From Leucoraja ocellata (lineage: Eukaryota), in assembly GCA_036785375.1 (NCBI GenBank), contig JAWMAR010000007.1:1116001-1180000 (forward strand): a DNA stretch of 64,000 nucleotides, given 5' to 3'. The translations under genes and the position numbers were made by a program. Positions 3,616 to 58,072 of this stretch are shown here, one piece after another (positions within the stretch are counted from its first letter, which is position 1; the number at the start of each line of letters is the position of its first letter). The notes beneath the pieces are model-generated. The model made no database searches, was not told the origin of the DNA, and was given only the letters and a program-made list of their open reading frames with translations.

Positions 3616-4210
3616 GTAATTGATTTATTGCTTCACCGTCCAGTTTAAGTAAGTAAGTAAGTACGTTTATTGGCCAAGTATTCACATACAAGGAATTTGC
3701 CTTGGTGCTCCACCCACAAGTAACAACATGACATACAGTGACAATTACGAATGACTCAGAAAACACTAAACATTAATAATAATAAAACATTAATGATAAA
3801 ACACCATTGATCAAGTATGTGAACCAACAAAATACCAGATCAAAGGGAGGCTACAAATTTTTGGCTGTTGAGTAGAGCAACTACTCGTTGATAAAAATTG
3901 TTTTTATGTCTGGCTGTGGCAGCTTTGACAAGCCAGGTCTGAATGAGTGTCCATTTAGTGTTCTTTGACAATATTTGGGATATTACATATTTCTGTGAGA
4001 TTAGATTGCTTGGATATGATACATAGTACCCTAGGGATCTGTTTATTTTCATAAGAAGATTTCTGTTTTGAAAATCGCATTTTTATTTGGCATTCGAGAG
4101 CAAACGGTGGTAGGTGTTTCATTTTATCAACATCAACCATATGAGCTTTGAAACATTTTGACAAATTTTGCTTTTTCAAGAAAGTTTAATTTTTTGGGGG
4201 AACATAATTT

Positions 4211-4633
4211 TAGTTTTAGTTTAGTTTAGAGATACAGCGCAGAAACAGGCCCTTCGGCCCACTGAGACCTCGCCAACCAGCGATCCCCGCGCATTAACAC
4301 CATACTACACACATTAGGAACAATTTACATTTATACCAAGCCAATTTACCTACATATCTGTACGCCTTTTGGAGTGTGGGAAGAAACCGAAGATCTCGGA
4401 GAAAACCTACGCAGGTCAAGGGGAGAAAATAGAAAAATAGGTGCAGGAGTAGACCCTTCGAGCCAGCACCGCCACTCAATATGATCATGGCTGATCATCT
4501 AAAATCAGTACCCCGTTCCTGCTTTTTACTCATATCCCTTGATTCCTTTAGCCCTAAATCTAACTTTCTCTTGAAACATACAAACTCTGTACAGACAGCA
4601 TAGTCTGGTTCGAACCCGGGTCTCCACTGCTGC
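4211..4633 (-). mobile_element. HE1-type tRNA-derived V-SINE split by a CR1 3'-tail insertion (~4428-4577)
   Basis: (ctaaa)n tail and V-domain on the minus strand; B-box-like remnant ggttcgaaccc resumes after the CR1 tail. Confidence 0.75.
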
Positions 4634-4971
4634 AGTATGAATATATCTGCACAATCAACAATCTTTTGACCTGCATAGTCCAGATTTTCTATTTTATATC
4701 CTCTGTGCCTCTGATGAGCAAATGCATCAAGATCTCTGGACATTTCCATTTATAGCCAACAATGTGCAAGGCAGCCTGCGACTATTTCCAGAATTTCCTT
4801 TCAACCTTACCTGGTTCAAACCATCTTCTGCCCATACAGAGGCAAGCTTTCATGGTGCCTACAGCTTGCGATGATTGCATATCCCAACCTCCACCTATTG
4901 ACCTGGTGACCTGATCTAGACCACTGATCCCACCTTGACTACCAATTGTACTCCCCAACAACGAAACATAG

Positions 4972-5140
4972 CAACCAAGCATTACCCCACCTCTACCTGA
5001 CAACCAAGCCTCACCCCACCTCTACCTGACAACCAAGCCTCACCCCACCTCTATCTGACAACCAAACCGTATCCTATCTCCACCTGACAATCAAACCCAG
5101 CCAACTTCCAACCCCCTCTCTACCCTGACAACCAAACACT
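4972..5140. repeat. 29-bp minisatellite (caaccaagcctcaccccacctctacctga)n
   Basis: Units start at 4972, 5001, 5030, 5059 and 5088, degenerating rightwards. Confidence 0.9.
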
Positions 5141-9837: not shown

Positions 9838-10574
9838 AGATCCCCCACATAATAACACGATCCTACACACTAGGGACAATTTACAATTTCACCAAGCTAA
9901 TTAACCTACAAACCTATACGTTTTGGAGTGTGGGAGGAAACGAGTTCCAAGGGAATACTCATGCAGGTCAAGTGAAGAATGTACAAACTCCGTACAGCCA
10001 GCACCCGTGGTCATGATCGAACCCGGGTCTCTACCGCTGCACCACCATACTGCCATCTGTCTCCTCACTGTCATTTGGGATGAATTTGTATTCATGTATT
10101 TTAAAAGACTATCGGGGAATTAAGTTGCTCGGTCTGTATGATACAAGCTCAATGTGGATCAAGAGCCTGATTACACACAGCCTGATGTTCTTTTTTATTA
10201 AAGTTAACAGAAAGGATAATAAAGCCCATTGCAACACAAATTGTCCAGTTGCAATGAACCATTTTATACTGCAGATGAAAGACTAAATTAATCTTTTCAA
10301 TAAACCACTACCAGTTTGGTTTATTGTCACGTGTACCGAGGTACAGTGAGAGGCTTTTGTTGCTTTTGTTGGTGCTCTTCTCCCACAAACACTCACCTGT
10401 CTACCTTGTTTTCTTTTCCCTATAATTTATCCCCTGTCATCCAGCTCCACCTATCACTTACCAGGCTCTGTGTCTCCCCTCCCTCAATCCATCTGACCAT
10501 TATTCCCTCCCATCCTGTTATAATTCCCTTTGTACCACCATATACTGGCAGTCTTTCCCATCCGCTCACAGTCC

Positions 10575-10785
10575 TAGTTAAGGGTCTTAACCTGAAATGT
10601 CGACTGTTTGCCTCCACAGATGCTGCTTGACCTGCTGAGTTCTTTCAGCCGGTTTCGGGTCGAAGGGTTTCGGCCCAAAACGTTACCTATCTCCTTCGCT
10701 CCATAGATGCTGCTGCACCCGCTGAGTTTCTCCAGCATTTTTGTGTACCGTCGATTTTCCAGCATCTGCAGTTCCTTCTTGCACA
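10575..10785 (+). mobile_element. Tandem Penelope-terminus fragments with hammerhead remnants
   Basis: aagggtttcggcccaaaacgttacc...gatgctgctgcacccgctgagtttctccagca. Confidence 0.65.
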
Positions 10786-10869
10786 CTAGTTCTTTCAGCC
10801 TCCTGTTTTAGTTCTAGGTTCCAGTATCTACATTCTCTTGTGATTCCAATTTCACCTTTTTGTATTTTA

Positions 10870-20109: not shown

Positions 20110-20849
20110 TTATCACCTGCCCAACCCCTATATGCAGGCTATTTCCTCGCCTCTGCACTCCCAGTCCTGATGCGTGGTCCTGAACTGAAACTTCGACTAT
20201 CCCTTTTCCACCACAGATGCTGCTCCACCTTCTGAGTTCCTCCAGTAGTTTGTTTTTTGTTCCTGACTACAGCATCTGCGGTCTTTTTTGTCTCAGTCCA
20301 GAAGAATAATTGGGAATGACTGAGGCGACAATTTGCCTCGTCCACTGAAGATTTTTTAGCTGTCACCATGATCTTGATGATCATGAAGGATATGGGTGGG
20401 TGGGGGAGCGGAGTTCTTCACATCAGCAGATGGTTCATGAATCAAGGGAAATGGATTTAAAGGGAAGCCAAAATATTATAGGGAGATGTGAGGCAAAATG
20501 TCTTTACAGAGGGTGGTAAAGACCTGGAATTTGCTCATTGTATGGGGATAGTAACAGGGTCGCTTGGAGCTTTCAAATGGAATTGCAGAGCAAAACAAGT
20601 TGCATAGTCACAAGGAAAGAACAAGCAATGGAACTGACTTGATTACTCCACAAGGTGTCATTGTGGACTTGATTTTGATTCTATGCAAAGCCAAATCATT
20701 TAGAAAGAAGCTCTTCTGGTGATGCCAGTAGGGAGAGCTTTTATTTTTTAACTCGACAAGAATTACGATTGTCTCCCATTGCCTTGTACCGGATTGACGA
20801 TGGAGAGCATTTGCCAAGGAGTCAGCTGACCCATCCGACTGATAGGATT

Positions 20850-21620: not shown

Positions 21621-21957
21621 TCAGTACATGCCAAATCTCTTTAACCAATGTCCACCATCTTTTGTTTCAGGCATGTATGTGTTCATCACAATCTATCAAG
21701 GTCAAACCCAAAATTGGTCTCAGACTGTAACAACTGCATTATTATTCCACTATTTATCTTAATGCACTAAAGATCTTGGGCAGGCATGGAGCACACCTGT
21801 GAACAGAATTATTTATCTCAATGACTGCTTTGTTACTCTGAAAGTGACACTGAACTTGTGTTGAAAACTCAAATTTCTGCTAAACTGGTGCTAAATAATT
21901 AGGTTTGAAAATTTCCATTTACGGGATAAGGACATGGGACATTCTTATATAGTGGAT

Positions 21958-22305
21958 GGACACAAAAAGCTGGAGTAACTCAGCGGGACAGGCAGCATCT
22001 CTGGATGGAAGGAATGGGTGACACTTCAGGTCGAGACCCTTCTTCAGGCTAAGAGTCATGGGAGAAGGAGACACAGAGATATGGAAGGGTAAGGTGTGAA
22101 GACGAGATACCAAATGGGATGAAGCTCAAGGGAAATGACGAATTAATCATTGTTATCATGGGGAAGGTGACAAGGAGGCATATAAAGATAAAATTTAATC
22201 AGGAGGACAGTCAGACTGGTCCGAGAACTAGGATGGGGGAGGGACTCCAGCTTTTGTGTCTATCTTTGGAGTAAACCAGCACCTCCAGTTCCATCCTACA
22301 CATTT
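21958..22305 (-). mobile_element. Penelope-like element terminus with hammerhead remnant and short inverted end
   Basis: gacacaaaaagctggagtaactcagcgggacaggcagcatctc...gtcgagacccttcttcag; inverted copy at ~22245-22300. Confidence 0.7.
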
Positions 22306-36040: not shown

Positions 36041-37189
36041 TCAATTCTAACGAAAGTTTATTTCCTTTCACTCCTTTCAGCAGTGATTAATAATTAAACT
36101 TTTTGTTTAATCTAATCGATTCAAGTATCACCTGGGCGGCCCAGAAACCAAAACCAGCAGCATAGTTTTATCACAATAGTTTGATTAACAGCAATGTACA
36201 ATCATTACATTATACATGTTGTGTGATATGATTGCCTGAGCAAATGTTCATAATACCCGTGCACCCATGGTTTGTGGAGGTGGGGAATGGTGCTGTGCTG
36301 TGCTGTGCTGTGCCTCGAACTCCATGTGGACCGTGGCCATTTTGTTGTGGGAACTCCTGGTCACTAAATTGGTCAAATACCACATTGGCATTTTTGAGAA
36401 AGATGGCTAGAGTTATCTGACTATTCCAGTTGGATTTTATTGTGAAGATCACCGGTATTGTGATAATGGTCAGTCTGTTGTTTAATTGGCCTCTGTAAAA
36501 AAAAAAATAAAAAAAAATGCCGGCATGTAGGAAGTGGAAAAACGTTGAACTTGTGTGAACAAGTGATCGATGGTTGGTGTGGAATCATGGGGCTGAAGGG
36601 CCCGTTTCCATGCCGCATCACTGAACTATAGACACTCCCAAAATGCACTTCAGAGGTATTTTTGTTAAAGCATTCTAAAATTACATGTCAAAGCATCTTC
36701 ATAAAATCATTGATAACATATGAGTGGATTGTGGATCAGTGCAACTCGCCATTATTATGTAAAATCATTACACCTCTAATTCTAGCGTGAAGGTATGCCG
36801 CATCCAACATTCTGAGGTAAAAGGAACTTTTGTTAGGGTTTTTAATCCCCATCTGAGTGTTGACACAACTGTGATATAGAGTTGCCATTTTCTGCAGCAA
36901 ACAAATCCCAGGCAAGATAAAAAATGGGCCAGCTTCTCTCAGAAAGCACGGTCATTTTCCCATCAGAATGCAATCGGTGAAGGCAGGATATACTCAAATT
37001 ATGTGCACAAGAAAACTAATCCCAGTCCCCAACAGACTAAGAAGACGGTCATAAGGTCATAAGAGCTAGTAGAAGAATTAGGCCATTCAGCCCATCGTCT
37101 ACTCCAACGTTCAATCACGGCTGATCTATCTCTCCCTCCCAACCCCATTCTCCCCATAACCCCCAACACCTGTACTAATCAAGTATTTA

Positions 37190-37329
37190 AGGTAGACAAA
37201 AATGCTGGAGAAAGTTAGCGGATGCGGCAGCATCTATGGAGCGAAGGAAATAGGCAACGTTTCGGGCCAAAACCCTTCTTCATTTTTGTCTACCTTTAAT
37301 TTTCCAGCATCTGCAGTTCCTTCTTGAAC
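37190..37329. mobile_element. Mini-Penelope insertion with 13-bp TSD inside a CR1 tail (~37048-37425, minus)
   Basis: aatcaagtattta (37177-37189) / aatcaaatattta (37330-37342). Confidence 0.7.
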
Positions 37330-37909
37330 AATCAAATATTTATCTCTGCCATAAAAATATCTATTGATTTGGCCTCCATGGCCTTCTGTGGCAATAAGTT
37401 CCACAGATTCACCACCCTCTGAGTAAAGAAGCGAGCTCTGACTGGAAGAAAATGTCACCTTTATGCAACCGATGATATCTCTAGACCCCCTCTCCCCTGA
37501 CTCAGTCTGAAGAAAAGTCTTGACCCGAAACGTCATCCATTTCATCTTTCCAGAGATGCTGCGTCAAGCTAAGTTACTTCAGCAATTTGTGCCTATCTTT
37601 GGTGTAAACCAACATCTGCAGTTCCTTCCTACATATTTTGTTTGTACTCTATCAAACATTCCTCTTAAAAATCCAAAGTGTATTCAGCATTTGATGAAAA
37701 TTTACCTAAATGATGCTCTGTTTAAATGCTAATGAACGTAGGAATTGTTATTTTTTAGCACAATTTTGGCTTGCATGATTATTGAAACTCTGCCAAGTGT
37801 TCATTTCAGATCCTCAACGGTTTCTTTGAGAGGGTAGAGTAATGGTTTCAGTTGATTTAACCACCCTTTTTTGGATATTTAATATTTGTGTTTGCTTTTA
37901 TTGTCACAG

Positions 37910-38037
37910 AATGCAAACATACTTCACAGGAATTCTTAAAAAGGTCAAAACCGCAACCATCTACCCTTCCAGCAAGGCTTTCTTACACGTTAGATGGCAG
38001 AGAAGACATTTATGCCAATTGTATGGTTGTAAATCAG
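37910..38037 (+). CDS. ARHGEF28: ARHGEF28 internal exon (phase 1-0; ECKHTSQEFLKRSKPQPSTLPARLSYTLDGREDIYANCMVVNQ)
   Basis: Acceptor ttttattgtcacag|, donor CAG|gtaagg; IYANCMV and LKRSKP resemble ARHGEF28 VYANCMV and LKKSKP. Confidence 0.92.
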
Positions 38038-38542
38038 GTAAGGTGTTACAAAATAAGGCTAAATACAGGATGTTGCTTCGATTGGAAGACTTTAATTATG
38101 GGAGGAGATTTGTTAGGGCAGTCATTTTTACATTGGAGTGAAGGAGACGGAGGGTGACCTGATAGAAGTATATAAAATTATAAGAGGCATAAATAGAATA
38201 GACAGATTTTTTTGTTCCCCTCAAGGCAGGCGTCATAAGCAGGAGGGCATTCATTTAATATCAGAGAAAGGGGTTTTAAAGGGAATTTGGGAAGTATCTT
38301 TTTCGCACAGAGAGCAGTTGATATCTGGAACACACTGCCAGATGAAGATGGTACAATCAAATGCAATTATTACATTTCAGAGTAATTTCGACGTAAATAG
38401 GTAAGGTAAAGAAGAATATACTCTTAATGTGGGCAAATGGGATTATCCCTGTGAGACCGCCAGTCTTGGCAGTTCTGCATTGCTTTGATCAAATTCACAC
38501 CCACGAAGATTTGAAGGATGTAGTCACAGTGTCACGAGGTTT

Positions 38543-39387: not shown

Positions 39388-39770
39388 AGGGCCCGTCACA
39401 CTTTCCCGAGATAATCACAAATTCTCCCGAGTTTTCCTCTTGATTCAAACTTGCAAAATGTTTGTAACAAGCCTGTAGGAGGCTGTAAAATTCTGTAGAT
39501 ATATCGTAGCGGCTCGTTATGCCAGCCGTAGGTACTCGGGGCATCAGGTAAGTCGAGACGTTTTTTTCCAGCCTGATAAAAAATGTCCACGAGTAAAAAA
39601 ATAATCGTGAGGAGAAAAATTGCAACTTACCTGATGCCCCGAGTACCTACGCCTGGCATAACGAGCCGCTACAATATAGCTACGGACTCCTACGGACTCA
39701 TTCTGCGAGTTTGAATTTAGGGGAAAACAAATGAGAATTTATGAATAACTCGGGAAAGTGGTCAGGCCCT
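39388..39770. mobile_element. PIF/Harbinger-type fold-back MITE
   Basis: TAA TSD (39385-39387, 39771-39773); long TIRs agggccc...ttcccgag; internal near-perfect inverted repeat ~39505-39553 vs ~39624-39672. Confidence 0.85.
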
Positions 39771-40079: not shown

Positions 40080-40444
40080 GTTGATGGGAGTGGTATACAC
40101 TATAATATTGATGACGTTACTACTGGAAGTACCAGTACTGAAAACACACAAAGTGTAGAACCATTTGAGGAGAATGTTGGTCAGGGTAATGGCTCCTCGT
40201 CCTCTAAGGACCCTGATGTACCAGCTTTATTGGACACTAACATATGTAGGGCATTTTCGAGTGAATGTCCTGAAGACCAAATTGACAATGCCACAATTCT
40301 CAAAGAAGCTCAGGATAATTTAGTGAAACAAGCTTCCAATTTTTCTTCACTCGATAGTGTTTTCCGCCGATCATTATTGCTGTCTCAGGGCCATGGCTGT
40401 GCCAAAGCAGACAGTCCTTCCACAAGCATTTACATTAAGCAAAG
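40080..40444 (+). CDS. ARHGEF28: ARHGEF28 internal exon (phase 0-2; VDGSGIHYNIDD...SPSTSIYIKQR)
   Basis: Acceptor actctttag|, donor AAAG|gtatgt, 365 nt open, phases match both neighbours. Confidence 0.88.
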
Positions 40445-41714
40445 GTATGTTATATTTTAATGATAGCATTGATGTTAAATATCCAGTTAACAGGTTCTAA
40501 GATCTAATTAAGCCAGCATAATTGAATGTAAATCACTATGAGTAGAATACTTTTCAAGTAAGTATGCTTTAAAGTGCCTGTTCAATAACCAGAAACAACA
40601 TGTTAACAAGCCCTCGGTCCAACATGCCTATGCCGGCCATCAAGTACCTAATATCTTGTACAAGCACTCGGAGCATCTTGGTCGGCATTGACCTGTGGGG
40701 CCGAAGGGCTGTTTATTTTATTTCAGTTTATTGTCATGTGAACAGTGAAAAACTTTGTGTTTTATTGTTGCATGCTAACCAGTCAGTGGAAAGCCAACAT
40801 ATAATTACACTCGGACCGTCCACAGTGTACAGATATATGATAAAGGGACTAATTTTTAGTGCAAGGTAATGTCCTGTAAAGTCCCCTGTATCATGCTGTA
40901 GGATTCAACAACTCCACACTAGGCCCTTTGCTTTCTTTGTCATGTGGTATCACAAAACCAAAACCTAGTGCTCATCCGATATCCTAAGGCAAAGGCATTT
41001 AGTTTTATACTAGACTAAGTGGGACCCGTTGGGTCCCAGCATCACACAGGAGGGCTGGTCATCCAACGCAATATTCCACCTCTCCACCAATTCTAATATT
41101 GGTGGCCAGTTGGCGGGGGGGGGGGGCTTTCTGGAGCGCTAGTATGGGTGTTGTGGGCTAAAGGGACTGGTTTCTAGAGGGCTAGTATGCAAATTGTGCG
41201 CCAAATGGATTCTTGGGCTGGCGTCTCAGCCAATCAAGCCTGTTGTGCTGGCAACTCACTCACGGCTGGTGGGCTGGTAGTTGACACGGCTAATCCTTGA
41301 AATTCTATTTCAAGCAGGATATAAGGCCACACAATTCAAGTGCAGTTTCTTACCACTTCTAGCGGGGTGCAAGGCCACAAAATTCAAGTGCAGTTTCATA
41401 CCATTTGAAGTAGGGTGCAAAGCCACTAAAGACAGCGAGTCGTGACCTCTCCCTCCTCCATCTTGCAGAGACTGAGCCACACCCACATTTCCGGGTTTTA
41501 TAACCCCTCCCACCCCACCGGAAAAGGTGTGGCTTTCATGGAGTGATTGACAGGAGAGAGATTCTCAACATTTAACTAATAACACTTATTTTTCATTGAT
41601 GGGAAGAATTCTCTGCACCTGCTCAGCAGAGGGGGACTGAATAAGATGGCCAAAAATCACAGCGGCAAGTGGTAGCGTTTTATCTAAAATCAATATACAG
41701 TACAAACAGGAAGT

Positions 41715-42480: not shown

Positions 42481-43003
42481 TAAGGGCACTTACATTTGAG
42501 TAAACATGTGTTCTGTGTTATTCACAGCTCAGAGAAACGTGACCCTCTGACTTCCTCCATCTTGCAGACACTGATTGAGGCACACTACTTCCTGGTTTTA
42601 TAGTCCCTCCCCCCTGCTGCCAGCGGGGGCTGCAGAGAGAATGGGAATTTTGTAAAAACATTAATATCTCTGTCATTTTTAATTGATGGGAAAAATCCTC
42701 GGCACACATGCGGCGGAGGGGGGCTCTGAGCGAGGTGGCCAAAAATGACGGCCATAGGTGGCAACGTTCTCTCGGAATTCGCAGCACAGATCACCAAAAC
42801 TGGTCAAGAACAGAGTTTTAGTAATATAGAAGATAGATAGATAACTTTGCTATGGACAATACAATTTTTTAAATGTCCCTGTTTATTCCACTAATAATTT
42901 TTCATACCTCTATTAGCTTTCACCTCAGCCTTCTCCACTCCAAAGAAAATAAACCAAGTCTCTCATAACTGAAACACTTCATACTCTGCAATATCCTTGT
43001 GAA

Positions 43004-43210
43004 GATAGACACAACATGCTGGAGTAACTCAGCAGGACAGGCAGCATCTCTGGAGAGAAAGAATAGGTGACGTTTCGGGTCGAGACTGACATCCTGAAGA
43101 AGGGTCTCGAACAGAAACGTCACCCATTCCTTCTCTCCAGAGATGCTGCCTGTCTCGCTGAATTACTGCAGCATTTTCTGTCTATCTTTGGTTTAAACTG
43201 GCTTCTTACA
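43004..43210. mobile_element. Fold-back mini-Penelope with 15-bp TSD
   Basis: caatatccttgtgaa at 42989-43003 and 43211-43225; two inverted termini meeting at the hammerhead region. Confidence 0.8.
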
Positions 43211-44199
43211 CAATATCCTTGTGAATCTCTTCAGCACTCTCTTTAATGCAATCACATCCTTACCAAATGTGATGACCAGAATGATACACAATACTTGAAT
43301 TGTGGACTAACCAATGTTTTATAAAGTTAAACTGTAACTTGCTCTTCTGTTCACTACCCTAGTTTATGAAGGTAAATATCCCACCTATCTTCTTCACCAC
43401 CTTGTGAACATGCGCTGTCATCTTCAGGGCCCCTTCGACTTGTACACTGAAATCCTGATCTTATTATTCCTTACAAAGTTCATCAACCTCACACTTAGCA
43501 TGATTACATTTCATCTGCCATTGCTCTGCCCACCTTACCAACTGGTTAATAACATCCTGCAGTCTACGACTTCCTTTGGTGAACACCTATTTCCTTCTGA
43601 TTATTTATCTCAGCTATTAAAGAAACAATGAAATAAAGTGCTTTTTGCCTACAGGGTGTTAGGTGAGCTGTGCCATGTGTTAACTGTGTCAGTCTGGGCA
43701 TGGGTCTTGCTTGTCATCCTGCAGCTTGAATTGAAATGGTGGAGAGAGAACTGGTAAAGAATTTGCTTTTGGCCTGATCACTGAAGAAATGGTGATATTG
43801 CACTTGTAAGATTGGAAAGCAATTTGCCTTGAACATGAATTCCTTCATGACGCATGGAGGGCATTTGAATATTTGTCTAAAACATTCTTATCTTCTGGCT
43901 TTGAAGAATTTAACTAATATTACTTTTCCAGGAAACAACCTTTTCCTGATATTAGATGGTGTAATGTACTTAAGGCATGCTTGGAATTCTAAATCTGACA
44001 ATACGGTCATAGTTCATTTGCCAGTAGTTAGTTAGTGAAGCTTTAGCACAGCTGCATAGTGTACTTTAGCTCCCAAAGCATGTCTGGAATTTGAAGTTCA
44101 ATGCCTGTTTCACGTTTGAGTCAACAAAATTATTCTCTAGAAACAATTGTTCCTTGAACCTTTCTACATGTGATTGCCATTCACTAATCCAAAATACTA

Positions 44200-44519: not shown

Positions 44520-46325
44520 CAACCACTTGTTCTTCAAAAGATCAATTTTTAAAAATGTTTAAATCTATTTATCAAAGTTTCTAAAGATCAGGAAACACAA
44601 AATCAATGAACATTATCATTAACTGAGGGGGAGGATGAGAGGTTTCAGTACACTATGGTAGCAAATTTAATAGATTGGATAGCAGTAGGAATAAGAGGAT
44701 AGTTGTAATCTTAAGCACAAATTAACCCAACTCTGCTTCATGATAAAATGTTCAATATTTTTGCCAGAGCCTATTACATTGAAGGAAAAAAATTAACTTG
44801 TCTCTTCAATATTGGGTTTAATGGATGTTAACAACTAAAAGTGAACCGTCTCATCCTTCAAATTCGAGCAGGTCAGCATCAATTAGATTAACTTATTTGA
44901 CTAATGATTTATTGTTTTCACATCCAATTTTCTAGACAAATTTTATAATTGGTGAATTCCTGCCATTAATCAACTCTGTGGTCACAAAAATATTCTGAAT
45001 ACCACAATCTAAACCAGTCATGCATGTGCATACTTCAAAAGGCAGAATTGCAGGGAAGAACATATTTCTGCTAAGGGACAGAATTAATTTGTACATGCTA
45101 TACTAATATGTACCCAGCATATTCTCATGATATTTCCACTCATTCAGTTGTTTTTTTTTCCCCAAAGGGTTTTGCTTTTAACTAATAAAATATTTGAAGC
45201 CTGCAGCAAGGTTTCCCACCTTAGCCGTAATTCAACGAGTATCCATTTTCTTAACATGCACCTGTATCACCTCATTCACAACTGCCTGTTCAACCAGTGC
45301 AAATCATTTTAATCCATCTACAGTACTTGTTTGTTTGCTTCTATGCCCGTCTCATTCCCTTTCTTTTTATTTTCCTGTGACCTTGGAACTTATTCTCTCC
45401 CACATATGCATCATATTGCCATTTGCCTATACGGGGGTGATTTACAGTAGCCGATTAACTTACCAGCATCCATAGGACTTGGATGGAAACTGGAGCATCC
45501 CAAGACAAACAGCACCTGAGGTCAGAATTGAACCCAGGTCGCTGAAGTGGTGATCAACAGCACAAACCATTGGCTGCATCTACATTCACACTGCCTCGAA
45601 ACAGCAGCCAACATAATCACAGGCATGTCCCAACCCAGTCATTCCCTCTTCCCCCTACTCCCACCCGGCAGAAGGTGCAGAAGTTTGAAAGCATGTACCA
45701 CCAGGCTCTGGACACTGAAATATTTATTTCCTCTTAATGGCTATACTGTAATCAGCTTTTCCAATGTGCCTGTGCTGACTTTTATCTTAAATCATCGAAA
45801 TGAGCTTTTGTTTTCCATTGCCCTTTTATAGTTTCTTAAATCTGTTTCCATAATTGTCTTAAACAGATTTACAATCTGGGAGGATATTGATTTTGGATTG
45901 CTATCAAAAATATGAGTGTGCAATTAATTGTTTTTTAGTGAAAGGATGGGAGTTAGCAGAAAGAAATGAAGGATACACAAAGATCAGGGTCGAGGAAAAT
46001 GTGATTGTGAGATTGGAATTTGATACATTTGTGTAAATGGGTAACTGATGTCTTTGCGGAAGCAGTAGGCCAAAGAGACTTGCTTTGTGCTGCATGACAT
46101 TTACACACATATTCTAATAAAAATCACATTACCTCTGACATCCGGAGAGGAGAAGGAAAATAAATTGCTAAATGCAGGAATGAAAACACATTTGTTTCTA
46201 TATGCAGACTTACATTTTCCTTAGTAAGTTTGTGGACAGCTGTTTTTACAGGTTTTACTTGTAGAAGCTGTGAGACTTTGCAATCGTTTGCTAGAAAATG
46301 ACCTTAACCCCATCTCTACAATTTA

Positions 46326-46802
46326 GGAAGATAGACACAAAATGCTGGAGGAACTCAGGGGGACAGACAGCATCCCTGGGTGACATTTCAGGTTGAGATC
46401 CTTCTTCAGACAGAGTCTGGGAAGATGGAAACTAGAGATATGGAAGTGGAAGGTGTGAAATGACAGATCAAAGCAGATGATGATCAAGGAAAATATAGAA
46501 TGGTTCATTATTAGCTGAGGGGAAGTTGATAACGAGGCATACAATGAGTAAAATTAATCAGGAGGGCAGTGAAACTAGTCAGAGAACTAAGGTACACAAA
46601 AATGTTGGAGAAACTCAGCGGGTGCAGCAGCATCGATGGAGCGAAGGAAATAGGCAACGTTTCGGGCCGAAACCCTTCTTCCGTCAGAGAACTAGGTGGA
46701 TGGAGAGAGGGAAAGCAAGGGTTACTTGAAGTTAGGTAAGTCAATATTCATACCATTGGGTTGTAAGTTGCCCAATGGATTATATGGAGCTGTTCCTCCA
46801 AA
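46326..46802 (-). mobile_element. Penelope-like 3' region with a nested mini-Penelope (~46590-46682, TSD gtcagagaacta)
   Basis: Same terminus and 3' UTR as 56965-57497; reaches into the endonuclease C-terminus. Confidence 0.7.
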
Positions 46803-47116
46803 TCGCTACAATACGAGCACCAGTCCTGATTTGGATGCCTGGATAGATCTGATCGACCAGCAAGCAGTGGTGAATGTCTGTTATGGTCGAACTAATTGCA
46901 GAGCATTTGGAAATCAGTGCCTGAATTAGACAACGTCAGCATGGATTTACATAAGGGAAATTGTGCTCGACAGATTTATGCTGCTTGCATATAAACTATC
47001 TGCAACATTTCAGGGACAAATACACTTTTATTTGCTTGCAGGCATATTGGTGACTGCCAGATTGCGGGATTGTGCAAGACATGGCAGACAGTGGTGAAGC
47101 CTTTCCATCTGCCATC

Positions 47117-48162: not shown

Positions 48163-48468
48163 TTAGTTTAGTTTAGTTTGGAGGTACAGCACCTTCGGCC
48201 CACTGGGTCCGCGCTGACCAGCGATCCCCGCACATTAACACTGTCCTACACCCACTAGGGACAATTTTTACATTTACCAAACCAATTAACACACAAACCT
48301 GTACCTCTTTGGAGTGTGGGAGGAAACCGAAGATCTCAGAGAAAACCCACGCAGGTCAGGGGGAGAATGTACAGACTCCGTACAGACAGCACCTGTAACC
48401 GGGATTGAACCTGGGTCTCCGGCGCTGCTTTTGCTGTAAGGCAGCAACTCCACCGCTGTGCCACCGTG
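48163..48468 (-). mobile_element. HE1-type V-SINE
   Basis: Full head-to-tail copy on the minus strand. Confidence 0.85.
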
Positions 48469-48571
48469 ACTGCCTTGGAGGATCTGAGCCTGAGAATGCA
48501 TTGAGCATTAAGGAGCTGCATGTACTAACACAACGTTTAAGAAACATTTAGACAGGTACATGAATAGGACA

Positions 48572-48788
48572 CACAAAAAGGCTGGAGAAACTCAGCGGGT
48601 GCAGCAGCATCTATGGAGCGAAGGAAATAGGCAACGTTTCGGGCCGAAACCCTTCTTCAGACCCGAAACGTTTCGGCCCGAAACGTTGCCTATTTCCTTC
48701 GCTCCATAGATGCTGCTGCACCCGCTGAGTTTCTCCAGCCTTTTTGTGTAACCTTCGATTCTCCAGCATCTGCAGTTCCCTCTTAAAC
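48572..48788. mobile_element. Young fold-back mini-Penelope with 14-bp TSD inside a CR1 tail
   Basis: acatgaataggaca at 48558-48571 and 48789-48802; near-perfect inverted arms. Confidence 0.85.
48629..48664 (-). ncRNA. Minimal type I hammerhead ribozyme motif (Penelope-associated)
   Basis: Minus strand GGGU-CUGAAGA-A-GGGU UUCG GCCC-GAA-ACGU-U-GCCU: intact core, stem II, palindromic ACGU helix III and a 4-bp stem I. Confidence 0.7.
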
Positions 48789-49475
48789 ACATGAATAGGA
48801 CAGGTTTGGAGGGATATGGGCCAAATGTGGGCAGGTGGGACTAGTGTAGCTGGGACATGTCGGTCGGTGTGGGCAAGTTTGGCCGAAGAGCCTGTTTCTA
48901 CGGTGTGTGACCATGACTATCTAGCTTAGGTTGGTGACTCTGAAAACACCCTGGGAGAAAACCCTTTGTTATGGGGTATGTTTGCCTCACAGACCCACAC
49001 TGAGAGTCGAGCTGTGGTCTTAACCATACCTCCTGCAATCATGTGTCACTGCTTAAACATCCAGTGCATCCACATCCCAACAGCTAAATGCTGGAGAAAG
49101 CACGCCGTGTTAGTTGAAGCACACATTGTGGGCTTTGAAAGGTATCTGAGCAACAGGCAGTGACTTTTAAGAGTGCCCAGCCAATGTTAATGAAGGTAAA
49201 TAGCAATAAAAGCAACAAGCTAGTGCAATGTATTCCTGGTTCTACATGTGGTACAGTGCATGTGGTGTGGATCTTTGAGCTACAATTTATGTTGGTATGG
49301 GTGAAATACTTAAGGGGCATTCTTTTAAAAAGGAGGTGAGGAGGAACTTCTTTAGCCAGAGGATAGTTAATCTGTCGAACTCGTTGCCACAGAGTGCTGT
49401 GTAGGCCATGTGAGTGGATATTTTTAAGGCAGAGATAGGCAAATTCTTGGGTGTCAGGGATTATGGGGATACATA

Positions 49476-52088: not shown

Positions 52089-52811
52089 GATTGAATTGCA
52101 TGAAAAAAGTATTTTACATCTGGCACATTTCACCAGGAGACAATCGTTAGTGAAACATATTCTGTATAAAATAGAATTCTGAGTGACTACTGCCTAAAAA
52201 TGGGTGCAATGCAAAGCAATTTTTATGACAGTTGATCTTAGAGAGTGAACTGCTACAATTTGCAGTTTTTCTTTTCTTTAGTTGGTTCATCAGAGTGACT
52301 CATGTTATGTACATCTTCCAATAAGTTTGGACTAAAAATGGAAAATGTTGGAAGAAAGCTTAATATTTTGACATAGATCTTTATTCGCGTATGTTTTGTT
52401 TTATTTTAGATTTCTGGCACGTGAACTTGTTTTTGCTATAAATATAATCTGCTCATGTATGCTGAACATTTAAAAAAAGATGCAAGCAATTAAAAAAAAA
52501 CCTGCTTGGGGTATTCAGAAGCAGAATAACATATGGTTTCCTGGGCAATGTTTTGATTAAAATATTTTTTTGTGTATCTAATAGCATAACTTATTTAGGT
52601 TAAATTTTTCTTTAGGCACTGACTATTGTCAGCAAAAACATACTATAATCTAGCATGTTCATGATTACAGGATAGAGCTACCCTGGATATAAAGTGACGA
52701 TCATTAGCTATGTCCCTTCATGAACTAATGTCAATGAATTATAAATGATCAAGGACAAGACATCACATATTGGTCTGAATGCAGCTTCATGTTCACTACT
52801 TTTTTTTGCAG

Positions 52812-53019
52812 GTTCAACTTTGATGGCATCGATGCGGACAGTGAAGGAGATGAAATTTCAGATCGATCTCAGGGTTCATGTACTCCAAAGTCTCCAAACT
52901 CTGCTGCAGCATTTGCTAGCAGTGGGGATGAACTGGACTCATTTGAGACTCACCAGGAAACTGAGATGGACATAAAGGGACCTGAATCCATCCCTTCCTC
53001 AGGCAGACTACTGTCCAAG
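52812..53019 (+). CDS. ARHGEF28: ARHGEF28 internal exon (phase 2-0; FNFDGIDADSEGDE...SSGDELDSFET...LLSK)
   Basis: Acceptor ttttttgcag|, donor AAG|gtacat; DADSEG and SGDELDSFET are ARHGEF28 motifs. Confidence 0.93.
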
Positions 53020-53536: not shown

Positions 53537-54495
53537 CAAAGATCTTATTGCAGAGCAATATGGTCCACTCCGCTAAAAAGCCGTAGTAGGGTCATGGGTA
53601 ATCTTCAACGCCATTTCCGTAACCGGCTTCCATCATGGCGTCAAGCTAATTCAGGGAGATTCTGCTATATCAGGCTGAGAGATTAAAGGATAGCCACAAA
53701 ATGCAGCAGGTCAGGCGGCATTTTTGGACAAAAGGAATAGGTGACATTTCGGGTCGAGACCCGTCTTCAGACTGAGTCAGGGGAAAATGGAACTCAAACT
53801 ATCTCCCCCCCCTTCCCTCCGACACGGACACGGAGCAATCGCCGCCCCCCCCCTTTTTTTTGTTAAACATCTATTTCCTTTGGATGTCTTAATTTCCCCC
53901 TTACCATTTACGTACTTTTTCGATAGCTGCCATGATCCGTTTGATGTCATCCTTCGCTCTGCTCCCAGTCTCNNNNNNNNNNNNNNNNNNNNNNNNNNNN
54001 NNNNNNNNNNNNNNNNNNNNNNNNNNNNNNNNNNNNNNNNNNNNNNNNNNNNNNNNNNNNNNNNNNNNNNNNNNNNNNNNNNNNNNNNNNNNNNNNNNNN
54101 NNNNNNNNNNGCCGGCACCAAGAGCGAGCGAATGTGCGGACAGACGGACGGAAGCAAAGATCATAGAGAGGAATAGGTGACATTTCGGGTCGAGACCCTT
54201 CTTCTGAGTCAGGGGAAAGGAGAACAAGTGATATAGACGGTACTAAGGACAAATGAATGGAAGATATGCCCATATCTCCCATTTCCCTTTCCCTTGAATG
54301 CGTCTGAAGAAGGGTCTCGACTCGAAATGTCCACCTATGCCGCACTATGATCTTTGCTTTCGTCCGTTGTCTGCCCGTTCGCGACATTTGGGTCGGGTTT
54401 ACTGAAATGGCGGTAGTTACGCTCCGGTGCGTATTACACGTCAGTCCATTGTATTTCGTAAGAGTGGACCATCTTGCTCTGCTCTAAGATCTTTG
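53537..54495. mobile_element. Non-autonomous TIR DNA transposon, 8-bp TSD (P-like or hAT-like); spans an assembly gap
   Basis: ~34-bp TIRs caaagatcttattgcagagcaatatggtccactc / gagtggaccatcttgctctgctctaagatctttg; TSD attaaaag/attcaaag. Confidence 0.8.
53973..54110. other. Assembly gap (N run)
   Basis: 138 N. Confidence 1.
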
Positions 54496-56610: not shown

Positions 56611-56964
56611 TCCTGGTTTTGTCTACATGCAACTCAATTCTATGCATTCTGTTTGATTAATGAACATGCCTGTTAAGAATGTTGTCTCTGGTTGGTAATA
56701 TTGAGCACACTATGTACAGTAGTTGTGACAGCACCTTGTACTCTTCCTCTAACATGCATTTCATTGACTTCAGTGAAATGGATTTCAGTCAGAGCGAAAT
56801 GTGCTGATGCTTCTTTATAATGGACTTATTGTGTCTAATGTCCATTATTAAATCTCATGGAAAATCTATGGCAAATCACAGGTGGAATAAATGTTCACTG
56901 CTGATTGCAAAATCTGGTCCTTTTTTTCCCCCGAGGTATAGTAATGTACATACATTTTTTATAG

Positions 56965-57497
56965 ACAGACACAAAAAGCTGGAGTAACTCAGCGGGCCAG
57001 ACAGCATTTCTGGAGAAAAGGAATAGGTGATGTTTCGGGTCAAGACCCTTTTTCAGACTGAGAGTCAGGGGAAAGGGAAATGAGAGATACAGATGGTGAT
57101 GTCAAGAGATACAGAACAAATGAATGAAAGATATGCAAAAAAGTAAGAACTATAAAGGGAACAGGCCATTGTTAGCTGTTTGTTTGGTGAGAACGAGTTA
57201 CAATGAGACTCAACAAGATGGCTTTGAAGCCTGTATGATGGGTGGGGGAGGGATGGAGAGAGGGAGAATGCAGAGGTTAATTAAAGTTAGAGAAATCAAA
57301 ATTCATACCACTGAGTTGTAAACTGCCCAAGCGAAATACGAGGTGCTGTTCCTCCAATTTGCGTTTGGCCTCAATCTGACAATGGAGGAGGCCTCGGACA
57401 GAAAGGTCAGTGTGGGAATGGGAAGGGTAATTAAAGTGTTTGGCAACTGGGAGATCAGGTAGGTCCAGGCTGACCGAACTGAGGTGTTCAGCGAAAC
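56965..57497 (-). mobile_element. Penelope-like element 3' end (GIY-YIG endonuclease C-terminus, 3' UTR and hammerhead terminus)
   Basis: Minus translation FAEHLSSV..DLPVAKHFN.PSHSHTDLSV.GLLHCQ.EAKRKLEEQHLVFRLGSLQ.SGMN, then the hammerhead-bearing terminus. Confidence 0.85.
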
Positions 57498-57957
57498 TAT
57501 AAATTTTATATACGTGATTTAAATCAGCTTTGTTGTCAAGTACGTTGTCAGTGTGCTGTCATGCATGACCATGTTGATATAAAAATTCCATGTCTTTTTT
57601 TGCGTGCCATGAGCTAAATGGTATGGCATCACAGCTCTGTAGTAAACGTGATTGATGTAGATTGGATGGCTAAATTACACAAGTATAACATACTACATGT
57701 TCTAAAACATCTTTTGCAAAATATTAATACGTAAAGTGCGTATTTTCATAAGATAACGCAAGTTGCATAGCAGACTACTTGAATTGGTCACAATAATAAA
57801 CTATTCAAAATCTGCTCGTGTAGGACATGTGTTGGACATTTGAGGTAAGTACTCTGTTCGTTTCAATGGAGCTCAAAAGGTTTTATCTCTGTAGGAGCTG
57901 TCCTGTGGTAGAGTCCAGCATTTTATGCTTGACATCATTTTTATCTGTTCTTTAAAG

Positions 57958-58072
57958 GAGACTGAAGATTCTGGGATTCGAATGCGATCATATTCCCTTT
58001 CCTCGCCTAAAGTATCGCAAAATAAATCTCGATTCGCAAGGGATTTTAGTTTGTGTGATTCCACAAGTGAAG
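57958..58072 (+). CDS. ARHGEF28: ARHGEF28 internal exon (phase 0-1; ETEDSGIRMRSYSLSSPKVSQNKSRFARDFSLCDSTSE)
   Basis: Acceptor ctgttctttaaag|, donor GAAG|gttagt; RSYSxSSPK motif. Confidence 0.92.

Follow-up and report, generated by a model that had tools for sequence, protein, structure and literature searches.

This locus raises the question of what the short repeats are that recur through a 64,000-nucleotide stretch of the genome of the skate Leucoraja ocellata (contig JAWMAR010000007.1; hereafter the window, in whose coordinates all positions are given), and whether the hammerhead ribozyme motifs that they carry still act on the gene in which they lie. An initial annotation, made from the letters alone, had proposed an amplified family of short Penelope-derived elements with minimal hammerheads and had singled out the copy at 48572–48788. 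The reading that we favor, with a probability of roughly 0.78, is that the repeat is the 3′ end of a Penelope-like element (PLE), probably a member of the Neptune clade, whose copies likely arose by target-primed reverse transcription and are probably inert, decaying remnants in introns today.

A hidden Markov model (HMM) built from eight window copies finds 32 segments in the 64-kb window, 16 on each strand and 2,959 bases in all, and none in the reversed window used as a control. All 19 repeat positions listed in the initial annotation are among them, and its claims of a high copy number and of mostly short copies are supported. The pattern CTGANGA-N(10-18)-GAAACGTH occurs four times, against 0.00 expected from 100 shuffles. 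The description of this repeat as the commonest short one holds for the two repeats that were compared: it outnumbers a tRNA-derived V-SINE-like repeat, presumably HE1-like, found at 48321–48470 and at 12 other loci (13 loci in all). A long near-perfect inverted repeat at 39496–39682, possibly a MITE, is unrelated to the family.

The two subtypes first described, here A and B, are present with the loop and stem letters attributed to them, and there is a third, older subtype C (10579 and 20163, both +) with a helix I of 4–6 bp. One C copy (10568–10650, +) has a 6-bp helix I and a mutated core; the other (20160–20295, +) has a tail, a 4-bp helix I, and mutations in core and helix II. Subtype A forms a 5′-truncation series running from the end of an endonuclease open reading frame (ORF) to the ribozyme core, with diagnostic letters common to long and short copies. 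Its long members are linked to the ORF at 57497 and 46801 or extend far into the untranslated region (UTR) at 22245, and four more reach −22 to −63. The copy at 21955–22302 (−) runs from the UTR to the end of the pseudo-LTR (pLTR; site 1) and has a short inverted, tail-bearing arm at 22240–22302 (+); that at 46327–46801 (−) comprises the ORF end, the UTR, and a damaged hammerhead. Subtype B is represented by five arms in four insertions, 89%–98% alike, all starting at −2 to +10 of C3 (the first letter of CUGAAGA), and has no long member within the window. Apart from the insertion at 48572–48788, B copies lie at 37189–37331 (with an inverted tail arm and a 13-bp target-site duplication [TSD] with one mismatch), at 10651–10787 (+; with tail, core deleted, 13-bp TSD, inside the older C copy), and at 46592–46682 (TSD 46578–46591/46683–46696, nested in the long A copy). 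Two of the four B insertions thus sit inside older copies of related elements (46578–46696 and 10638–10800). The tail is reached by 14 of the 32 segments, and no full-length element was found in the window.

The initial annotation placed one motif 3′ of a Penelope endonuclease ORF end, and this proves correct. The ORF at 57277–57497 (−) encodes the C-terminal 72 amino acids of a GIY-YIG endonuclease of Neptune type and is separated by 220 nt from a motif copy downstream of it (C3 at 57056, H17 at 57029) that lies in a tailless 3′ UTR/pLTR at 56962–57276 (−), a subtype A hammerhead with G8 and the palindrome mutated. Two further pieces of the ORF end are seen at 46775–46725 and 53151–53071. The 72 residues have 337 protein matches at E ≤ 0.001 (best 72%), the best named ones being gene models of skates and rays. 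By itself the fragment gives no Pfam match; it aligns with the C-termini of proteins that score with GIY-YIG, a family scored in 8 of 12 scanned matches, all under the curated cut-off. Distant matches (P0037, P0099, P0127) carry a reverse transcriptase (RT) and GIY-YIG over a PLE-like protein; the window itself holds no RT of the element. A Cys linker precedes the endonuclease in relatives P0002, P0005, P0013, P0037, and P0099, and the form CX2-5CxxC is present in 19 of 49 matches showing the YIG motif, in a region that lies outside the window fragment. Craig et al., in the available text of their paper, tie this linker to Neptune and Nematis (PMC8557442), and a preprint, likewise available in part, reports only Neptune and Poseidon from vertebrates (bioRxiv 10.64898/2026.07.22.740005). 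The parent is therefore likely a Neptune element, an assignment based on the linker in relatives and on the reported distribution. The Penelope-like origin of the repeat is borne out by the GIY-YIG ORF end together with TSDs, head-to-head arms, and the tail. Several skate and ray gene models (DCC, NMUR1, ATP synthase c, and NYAP1-like; P0003, P0007, P0009, P0029) include a PLE endonuclease C-terminus, which may reflect exonization or an annotation artifact. A set of 80 loci related to match P0004 was discarded: they were drawn by its unrelated LINE-type RT part, and none matched the family HMM.

The interval 48572–48788 had been taken as one short element; it is instead a single palindromic insertion flanked by a perfect 14-bp TSD (48558–48571 and 48789–48802). 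It lies in an older host repeat of which four other copies hold the target site once. A subtype B arm with hammerhead (48572–48662, −) ends at site 1; at the other side of this arm lie a fold-back junction (48661–48669, −) and then an inverted B arm (48670–48748, +) that starts inside helix II, without CUGAAGA. The two arms are identical over 79 of 79 positions, which marks the insertion as young. A 40-nt PLE tail (48749–48788, +), running from site 1 to a second end point, site 2, is present on the second arm only, and its letters recur in the loose ends of 1,674 RNA reads. Rfam microRNA matches at 48592–48728 reflect only the palindrome.

The same architecture recurs elsewhere. Subtype A palindromes at 416–620 (tail on one arm) and 43001–43212 (partial tail on one arm) each have a 15-bp TSD. 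TSDs measure 11–15 bp, and a score of at least 11 is reached at 7 of 20 insertions tested versus 1% of 300 random sites; no microsatellite targeting was seen at the TSD-defined sites. There are six inverted pairs. In all five that are readable exactly one arm is tailed and the other ends at site 1; in the sixth both arms are cut short. A 138-N gap (53973–54110) adjoins the inverted pair at 54169–54341, whose arms are both cut short, with similar flanking sequence. For PLEs, the accessible portions of the papers record copies with an inverted 5′ part, tails confined to one end, and junctions that are palindromic (PMC8557442, PMC3846280).

A mechanism for this pattern is suggested by PAc, the Poseidon element of Anolis carolinensis (Frangieh et al. 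2024, PMC11167929; available in part), for which both target strands were nicked and extended in vitro and cDNA started at two sites bounding the tail. The skate repeat shares with PAc two 3′ end points some 40 nt apart that define the tail and a lack of RNA ends at the cleavage site, and priming on both strands would give the one-tail pattern. PAc belongs to a different clade, and its ORF starts at helix II, where the skate repeat has no ATG. By analogy, the skate RT-endonuclease would nick both strands and start cDNA internally at site 1 and at the tail end, and two adjacent start sites would yield one tailed and one untailed arm; PAc-like priming of this kind would leave one tail per palindrome. 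Reverse transcription would then usually come to a halt where the hammerhead begins on its 5′ side, and the cDNA would often fold back at a quasi-palindrome there, which would explain why most copies measure 90–140 nt.

How good are the hammerheads? The copy first judged intact reads, from 48660 to 48633 (−), CUGAAGA, an extra A, GGGU-UUCG-GCCC, GAA, ACGU, and U. The layout first given (CUGAAGA, stem II, GAA, ACGU, H) is right except that it left out the extra nucleotide between A9 and helix II, which is A in 16 of 17 subtype A arms. The assignment to the minimal type I class with a palindromic ACGU stands: in both A and B the majority sequence agrees with the consensus in the literature, having all 11 core nucleotides, the extra base after A9, and G10.1-C11.1. 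ACGU is kept in all five arms of subtype B but in only 6 of the 19 of subtype A (it is CpG-decayed in the other A arms), and it is the majority form in reads of related skates. The initial view that most copies are mutated in core or stem also holds. Core, helix II, and a pairable tetranucleotide are all retained in only 3 of the 26 arms that reach the core, and among the 23 that fail, some do so through truncation. The retained arms begin at 48663 (−), 53776 (−), and 54302 (+) and have helix I lengths of 4, 2, and 0 bp. The second carries a subtype A motif antisense to the host gene ARHGEF28 (53741–53772, −), and the third is the sole sense-strand motif with core and helix II intact (54304–54331, +).

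Reads and contigs of four runs from related skates were mapped on 46300–46850 at 80% likeness. In all four runs most sequences have AUCAGU upstream of the core, where 35%–45% of RNA reads are of A type and the rest of B type; with ACC or GCC these letters can form only 2 bp. Helix I of the A and B majority sequences thus comprises only a U-A or U·G pair plus a G-C pair, below the usual ~3–5 bp. Helices of 2 bp occur in five taxa of 56 published rows in the accessible part of PMC4209133, always as G-C pairs, so that the short helix lowers the type I assignment and does not remove it.

The motif at 48629–48664 (−), which had been called intact, is less than it seems. Its parts are in place (C3 48660, extra A 48653, helix II 48652–48641, ACGU 48637–48634, H17 [U] 48633), and yet its 4-bp helix I borrows letters of the inversion junction, which supply the apparent 5′ strand and occur likewise at 10652. 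It is on the strand opposite to the gene's, and folding predictions lock it in a hairpin: −20 kcal/mol over 51 nt in its own context, and, for the whole 48572–48788 insertion, one long stem of −176 kcal/mol in which the pairing probability of helix II is 0.0.

For four A and B stretches the active dimer is predicted to lie 10–24 kcal/mol above two free monomers, in nearest-neighbor energies that omit tertiary contacts and protein help. The test discriminates poorly, since the mutated subtype C copies, with their longer helix I, also come out 11–26 kcal/mol uphill. No position at which one fifth of the molecules begin or end was seen in two raw RNA runs; this is a weak test, because thousands of passive copies dominate. 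An Rfam scan of the window returned 13 matches up to E = 5 and no hammerhead family, in keeping with our reading that the Rfam models do not cover this minimal form. The exact hammerhead pattern had no match in viral and metagenome contigs. The two loci that a looser pattern found in genome contigs do not match the family HMM. One, in a contig titled as a bacterial metagenome-assembled genome (MAG; L082:571–680, −), is a minimal hammerhead of textbook form whose helix I has 4 bp; the other is a hammerhead-like core in a Treponema MAG (L081:571–680).

We considered whether splicing might complete helix I. Just before the core come a pyrimidine tract and CAG, with no donor upstream, by eye, that would lengthen the helix; loose ends of the RNA agree with the genomic letters, and the 15 listed of 304 joints include none of this kind. 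The idea is not supported. A second pyrimidine tract followed by AG stands directly before ATGCTG some 45 nt past the core in all three subtypes (48613–48632, −, in the insertion discussed above; 17 of 19 listed arms) and resembles a 3′ splice site with a start codon directly behind it. Read by eye, the frame opened by ATGCTG meets a stop in the tail after 17 codons in A and is open to the tail end in B and C. No depth step was seen at this site in RNA reads. The consensus fold of eight tail-bearing copies has an 8-bp stem between pLTR and tail that uses the same letters; none of 13 pairs shows a two-sided change, and this predicted stem is no proof of structure. A rare 33-nt tandem duplication (46643–46675) spans helix II to the 3′ strand of helix I, without CUGAAGA, in four and eight contigs of two runs.

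Traces of selection were sought in the differences between subtypes and between arms. A and B differ at 4 of 30 hammerhead positions (11.4 and 1.1, both A to G; H17, C to U; and one base of a loop), and all four differences are tolerated by the motif, with a chance of 0.035 if only transitions are allowed and 0.007 for any change. The stem I changes had been called matching; as covariation this is not supported, as the A-to-B changes in helices are one-sided, from U-A pairs to U·G wobbles. From C to A the pair 2.1-1.1 passes from C-G to U-A, in two C copies only and with a possible shift of register. Within the 19 A arms, the core has mismatches at 6 of 167 positions versus 69 of 808 downstream (p = 0.026; 13.6 expected from base-matched rates), in a small test with CpG and subfamily-diagnostic columns dropped and column starts set by hand that cannot separate selection on sources from selection on copies; first-pass counts were 11/172 versus 105/874 (p = 0.033). 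The core is thus more conserved than the flank, and the A-to-B changes include no compensatory pairs. CpG sites, including that of ACGU, have decayed in 44%–68% of A arms. Decay of the ACGU CpG in A arms (15.2-16.2) took the form of 10 C>T and 2 G>A changes (p = 0.04), other CpGs being nearer even; in a dimer, C>T keeps a U·G pair and G>A breaks it.

Our reading of these patterns is that selection acted on the motif while it was in source elements, and that inserted copies then decayed neutrally. In the sources the motif, kept by selection, would have weak cleavage activity, either as a dimer or with the help of the element's protein. It is possible, though in our judgment doubtful, that the hammerhead was already vestigial in the A and B sources, having gone from a helix I of 4–6 bp to one of 2 bp and being kept through overlapping signals. 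That the published 2-bp cases are all G-C, unlike those of the skate, speaks for this, as do the GUU of subtype B with its self-complementary stretch over helix II and GAAAC, and the finding that hammerhead mutants left PAc insertion in vitro unimpaired (PMC11167929, in the available text). Against it, the A-to-B changes keep every pair, 1.1-2.1 included; the core is more conserved than the flank; a 2-bp helix I has precedent; and the PAc ribozyme cuts only with its protein, so that weak folds can work (PMC11167929).

The 5′ ends of the copies bear on what was reverse transcribed. After hand correction of four arms whose reach had been inflated by arm-to-arm matches, 16 of the 32 ends lie at −14 to +2 of C3, three at +3 to +16, one at +28 to +32, five further downstream, and seven further upstream. 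On the uncorrected list, copies stop at a rate of 0.027 per nt within −7 to +2 and of 0.003 downstream (p = 0.0006). The ends thus pile up at the 5′ edge of the hammerhead far beyond random truncation. Since only one end in 32 is near the cleavage site (+28 to +32), the templates were not cut by the ribozyme.

The boundary falls on TCAGTCT, which forms a quasi-palindrome with the core and also fits YYANWYY, the initiator consensus, a pattern matched at 1.2% of window positions. Both run-off at a transcription start and stalling with fold-back fit such an edge. In the former case the short copies would be run-off cDNAs of RNA starting at TCAGT, three bases upstream of C3, and primed internally in the 5′ pLTR, with only the tail-to-cap stretch copied; the sharp boundary and the 2-bp helix I would both follow. 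We hold this to be rather unlikely, and it would refine rather than exclude the explanation by decayed PLE ends. Besides the half of all ends that cluster at −14 to +2 and the initiator-like letters, it draws on the loose-end consensus of four runs, which holds for 8–9 letters upstream of the core and then becomes mixed (agreement 0.41–0.59), on the internal Inr/DPE promoter of the Drosophila virilis Penelope pLTR (PMC2377424), and on the internal initiation demonstrated for PAc (PMC11167929), both papers being available in part. Stalling or fold-back of the RT at the quasi-palindrome explains the boundary equally, however; no site where many RNA molecules begin was found in the two raw RNA runs at the threshold of one fifth of depth; the DPE-like match has four of five letters and overlaps the conserved core; and the D. 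virilis start is separated from its hammerhead by 46 nt plus a 75-nt intron that ends at helix I. The strand bias of the single-cell run X23, in which about 78% is antisense to the motif, was discounted because it probably reflects internal priming.

A bolder form of the idea, which we consider improbable, is that the hammerhead of the skate Neptune element serves as an internal core promoter. The A of TCAGT, in helix I, would be the transcription start; this site itself would cut helix I down to 2 bp, and the autonomous RNA would yield a SINE-like swarm without a separate master, as copies of 90–140 nt from cap to tail made by internal priming at the two tail sites.

The pile-up of 5′ ends, together with a roughly 10-fold excess of read depth, also fits a dedicated short family. 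Subtype B, with some A copies, might be a separate non-autonomous, SINE-like family whose short masters borrow the Neptune enzyme; pLTR-derived non-autonomous elements have been described (PMC8557442; bioRxiv 10.64898/2026.07.22.740005; both in the text accessible), and the uniform starts and close likeness of the five B arms agree with it. In run X22 depth is 4,100–5,100 from core to end, 430–490 at the ORF end, and 34–112 over one subfamily's UTR, where contig depth is not copy number and the core, unlike the upstream region, pools all subfamilies. The diagnostic letters shared by long and short A copies argue against such a family, as does the upstream loose end of run X23, which runs on as a shared G-rich tract, implying that many copies extend further. 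No head-to-tail hammerhead array is present among 33 Tandem Repeats Finder rows for the 64-kb window. On balance we think separate short masters unlikely. Without tandem units, the repeat is not a non-LTR retrozyme as that term is defined in the available text of Li, Clavereau and Pollet 2026 (bioRxiv 10.64898/2026.07.22.740005). It shares with retrozymes a pLTR origin, a type I hammerhead, and dispersed monomers. Retrozymes, however, are head-to-tail units each with a hammerhead and with ends at the cleavage site, whereas the skate copies have TSDs, tails, head-to-head arms, and 5′ ends off that site.

The copies lie in introns of ARHGEF28, as first proposed. The stretch at 40116–40442 matches batoid ARHGEF28 (best 88%, to a skate), and coding segments on the + strand map to 37906–38064, 40080–40448, 52810–53019, and 57955–58071, four stretches clearly and two weakly being mapped in all. 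None of the 32 segments overlaps a mapped exon. Since the gene is on the + strand, copies on that strand are sense in the pre-mRNA. Their relevance to that RNA is not supported. That some of them cut and regulate the pre-mRNA is exceedingly improbable. Twelve core-reaching arms do lie on the sense strand in introns, but none has the full motif; the four closest same-strand pairs (78–366 nt apart) each have one damaged member; orientation is unbiased at 16:16; and the insertion at 48572 shows the pre-mRNA only its arm without CUGAAGA. The scattered copies likely do not cut this RNA, given that nearly all are mutated and the intact-looking one is predicted to be locked in a hairpin. There is no sign of an effect on ARHGEF28. 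On the + strand, 48572–48748 would form a perfect 79-bp hairpin in the pre-mRNA (−167 kcal/mol predicted), a possible substrate for A-to-I editing. On 46300–46850, A>G places number 25 and 23 in the RNA runs versus 16 and 15 in the contig sets, under listing rules that differ.

Much of this has precedent. The minimal hammerheads (min-HHRs) of PLE pLTRs described by Cervera and de la Pena 2014 (PMC4209133) share with the skate motif, in the accessible part of that paper, CUGANGA-H, G10.1-C11.1, a 4-bp helix II, GAAA, a palindromic 15.1-16.1, and H17; they too are mostly single copies from truncated PLEs and form opposite-strand pairs, at a published spacing of 100–700 bp. They differ in helix I, of 2 bp closed by U-A or U·G in skate A and B against 3–5 bp. 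Thousands of min-HHRs per genome are reported from coelacanth and Xenopus (PMC4209133), and their position at PLE ends, their abundance as single copies, and their opposite-strand pairs are already published (PMC4209133, PMC6155905, PMC6765202, as available). Neptune elements of the endonuclease-bearing (EN+) kind (Craig et al. 2021, PMC8557442, in part) show a C-terminal GIY-YIG, a Cys linker (here in relatives), 5′ truncation, an inverted 5′ copy, a 30–40 bp tail on one end, and a hammerhead in the pLTR; of such an element the window has only the last 72 amino acids, with no RT and no full-length copy. The 56 rows of Fig. S3 of PMC4209133 include no cartilaginous fish, and the preprint, in its available text, reports non-LTR retrozymes from one chondrichthyan genome. 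Beyond that one, a literature search covering few subscription journals found no description of PLE hammerheads in skates, sharks, or rays.

These results extend the known association of minimal hammerheads with PLE pseudo-LTRs to skates. The copies constitute a natural record of PLE integration, in which one tail per palindrome fits priming at two sites on two strands and 5′ ends that avoid the cleavage site mean that the ribozyme had not cut the template. Were transcription indeed to start at TCAGT, the spread of solo hammerheads through genomes by PLEs would be explained, and the purpose of the PLE hammerhead would become testable.
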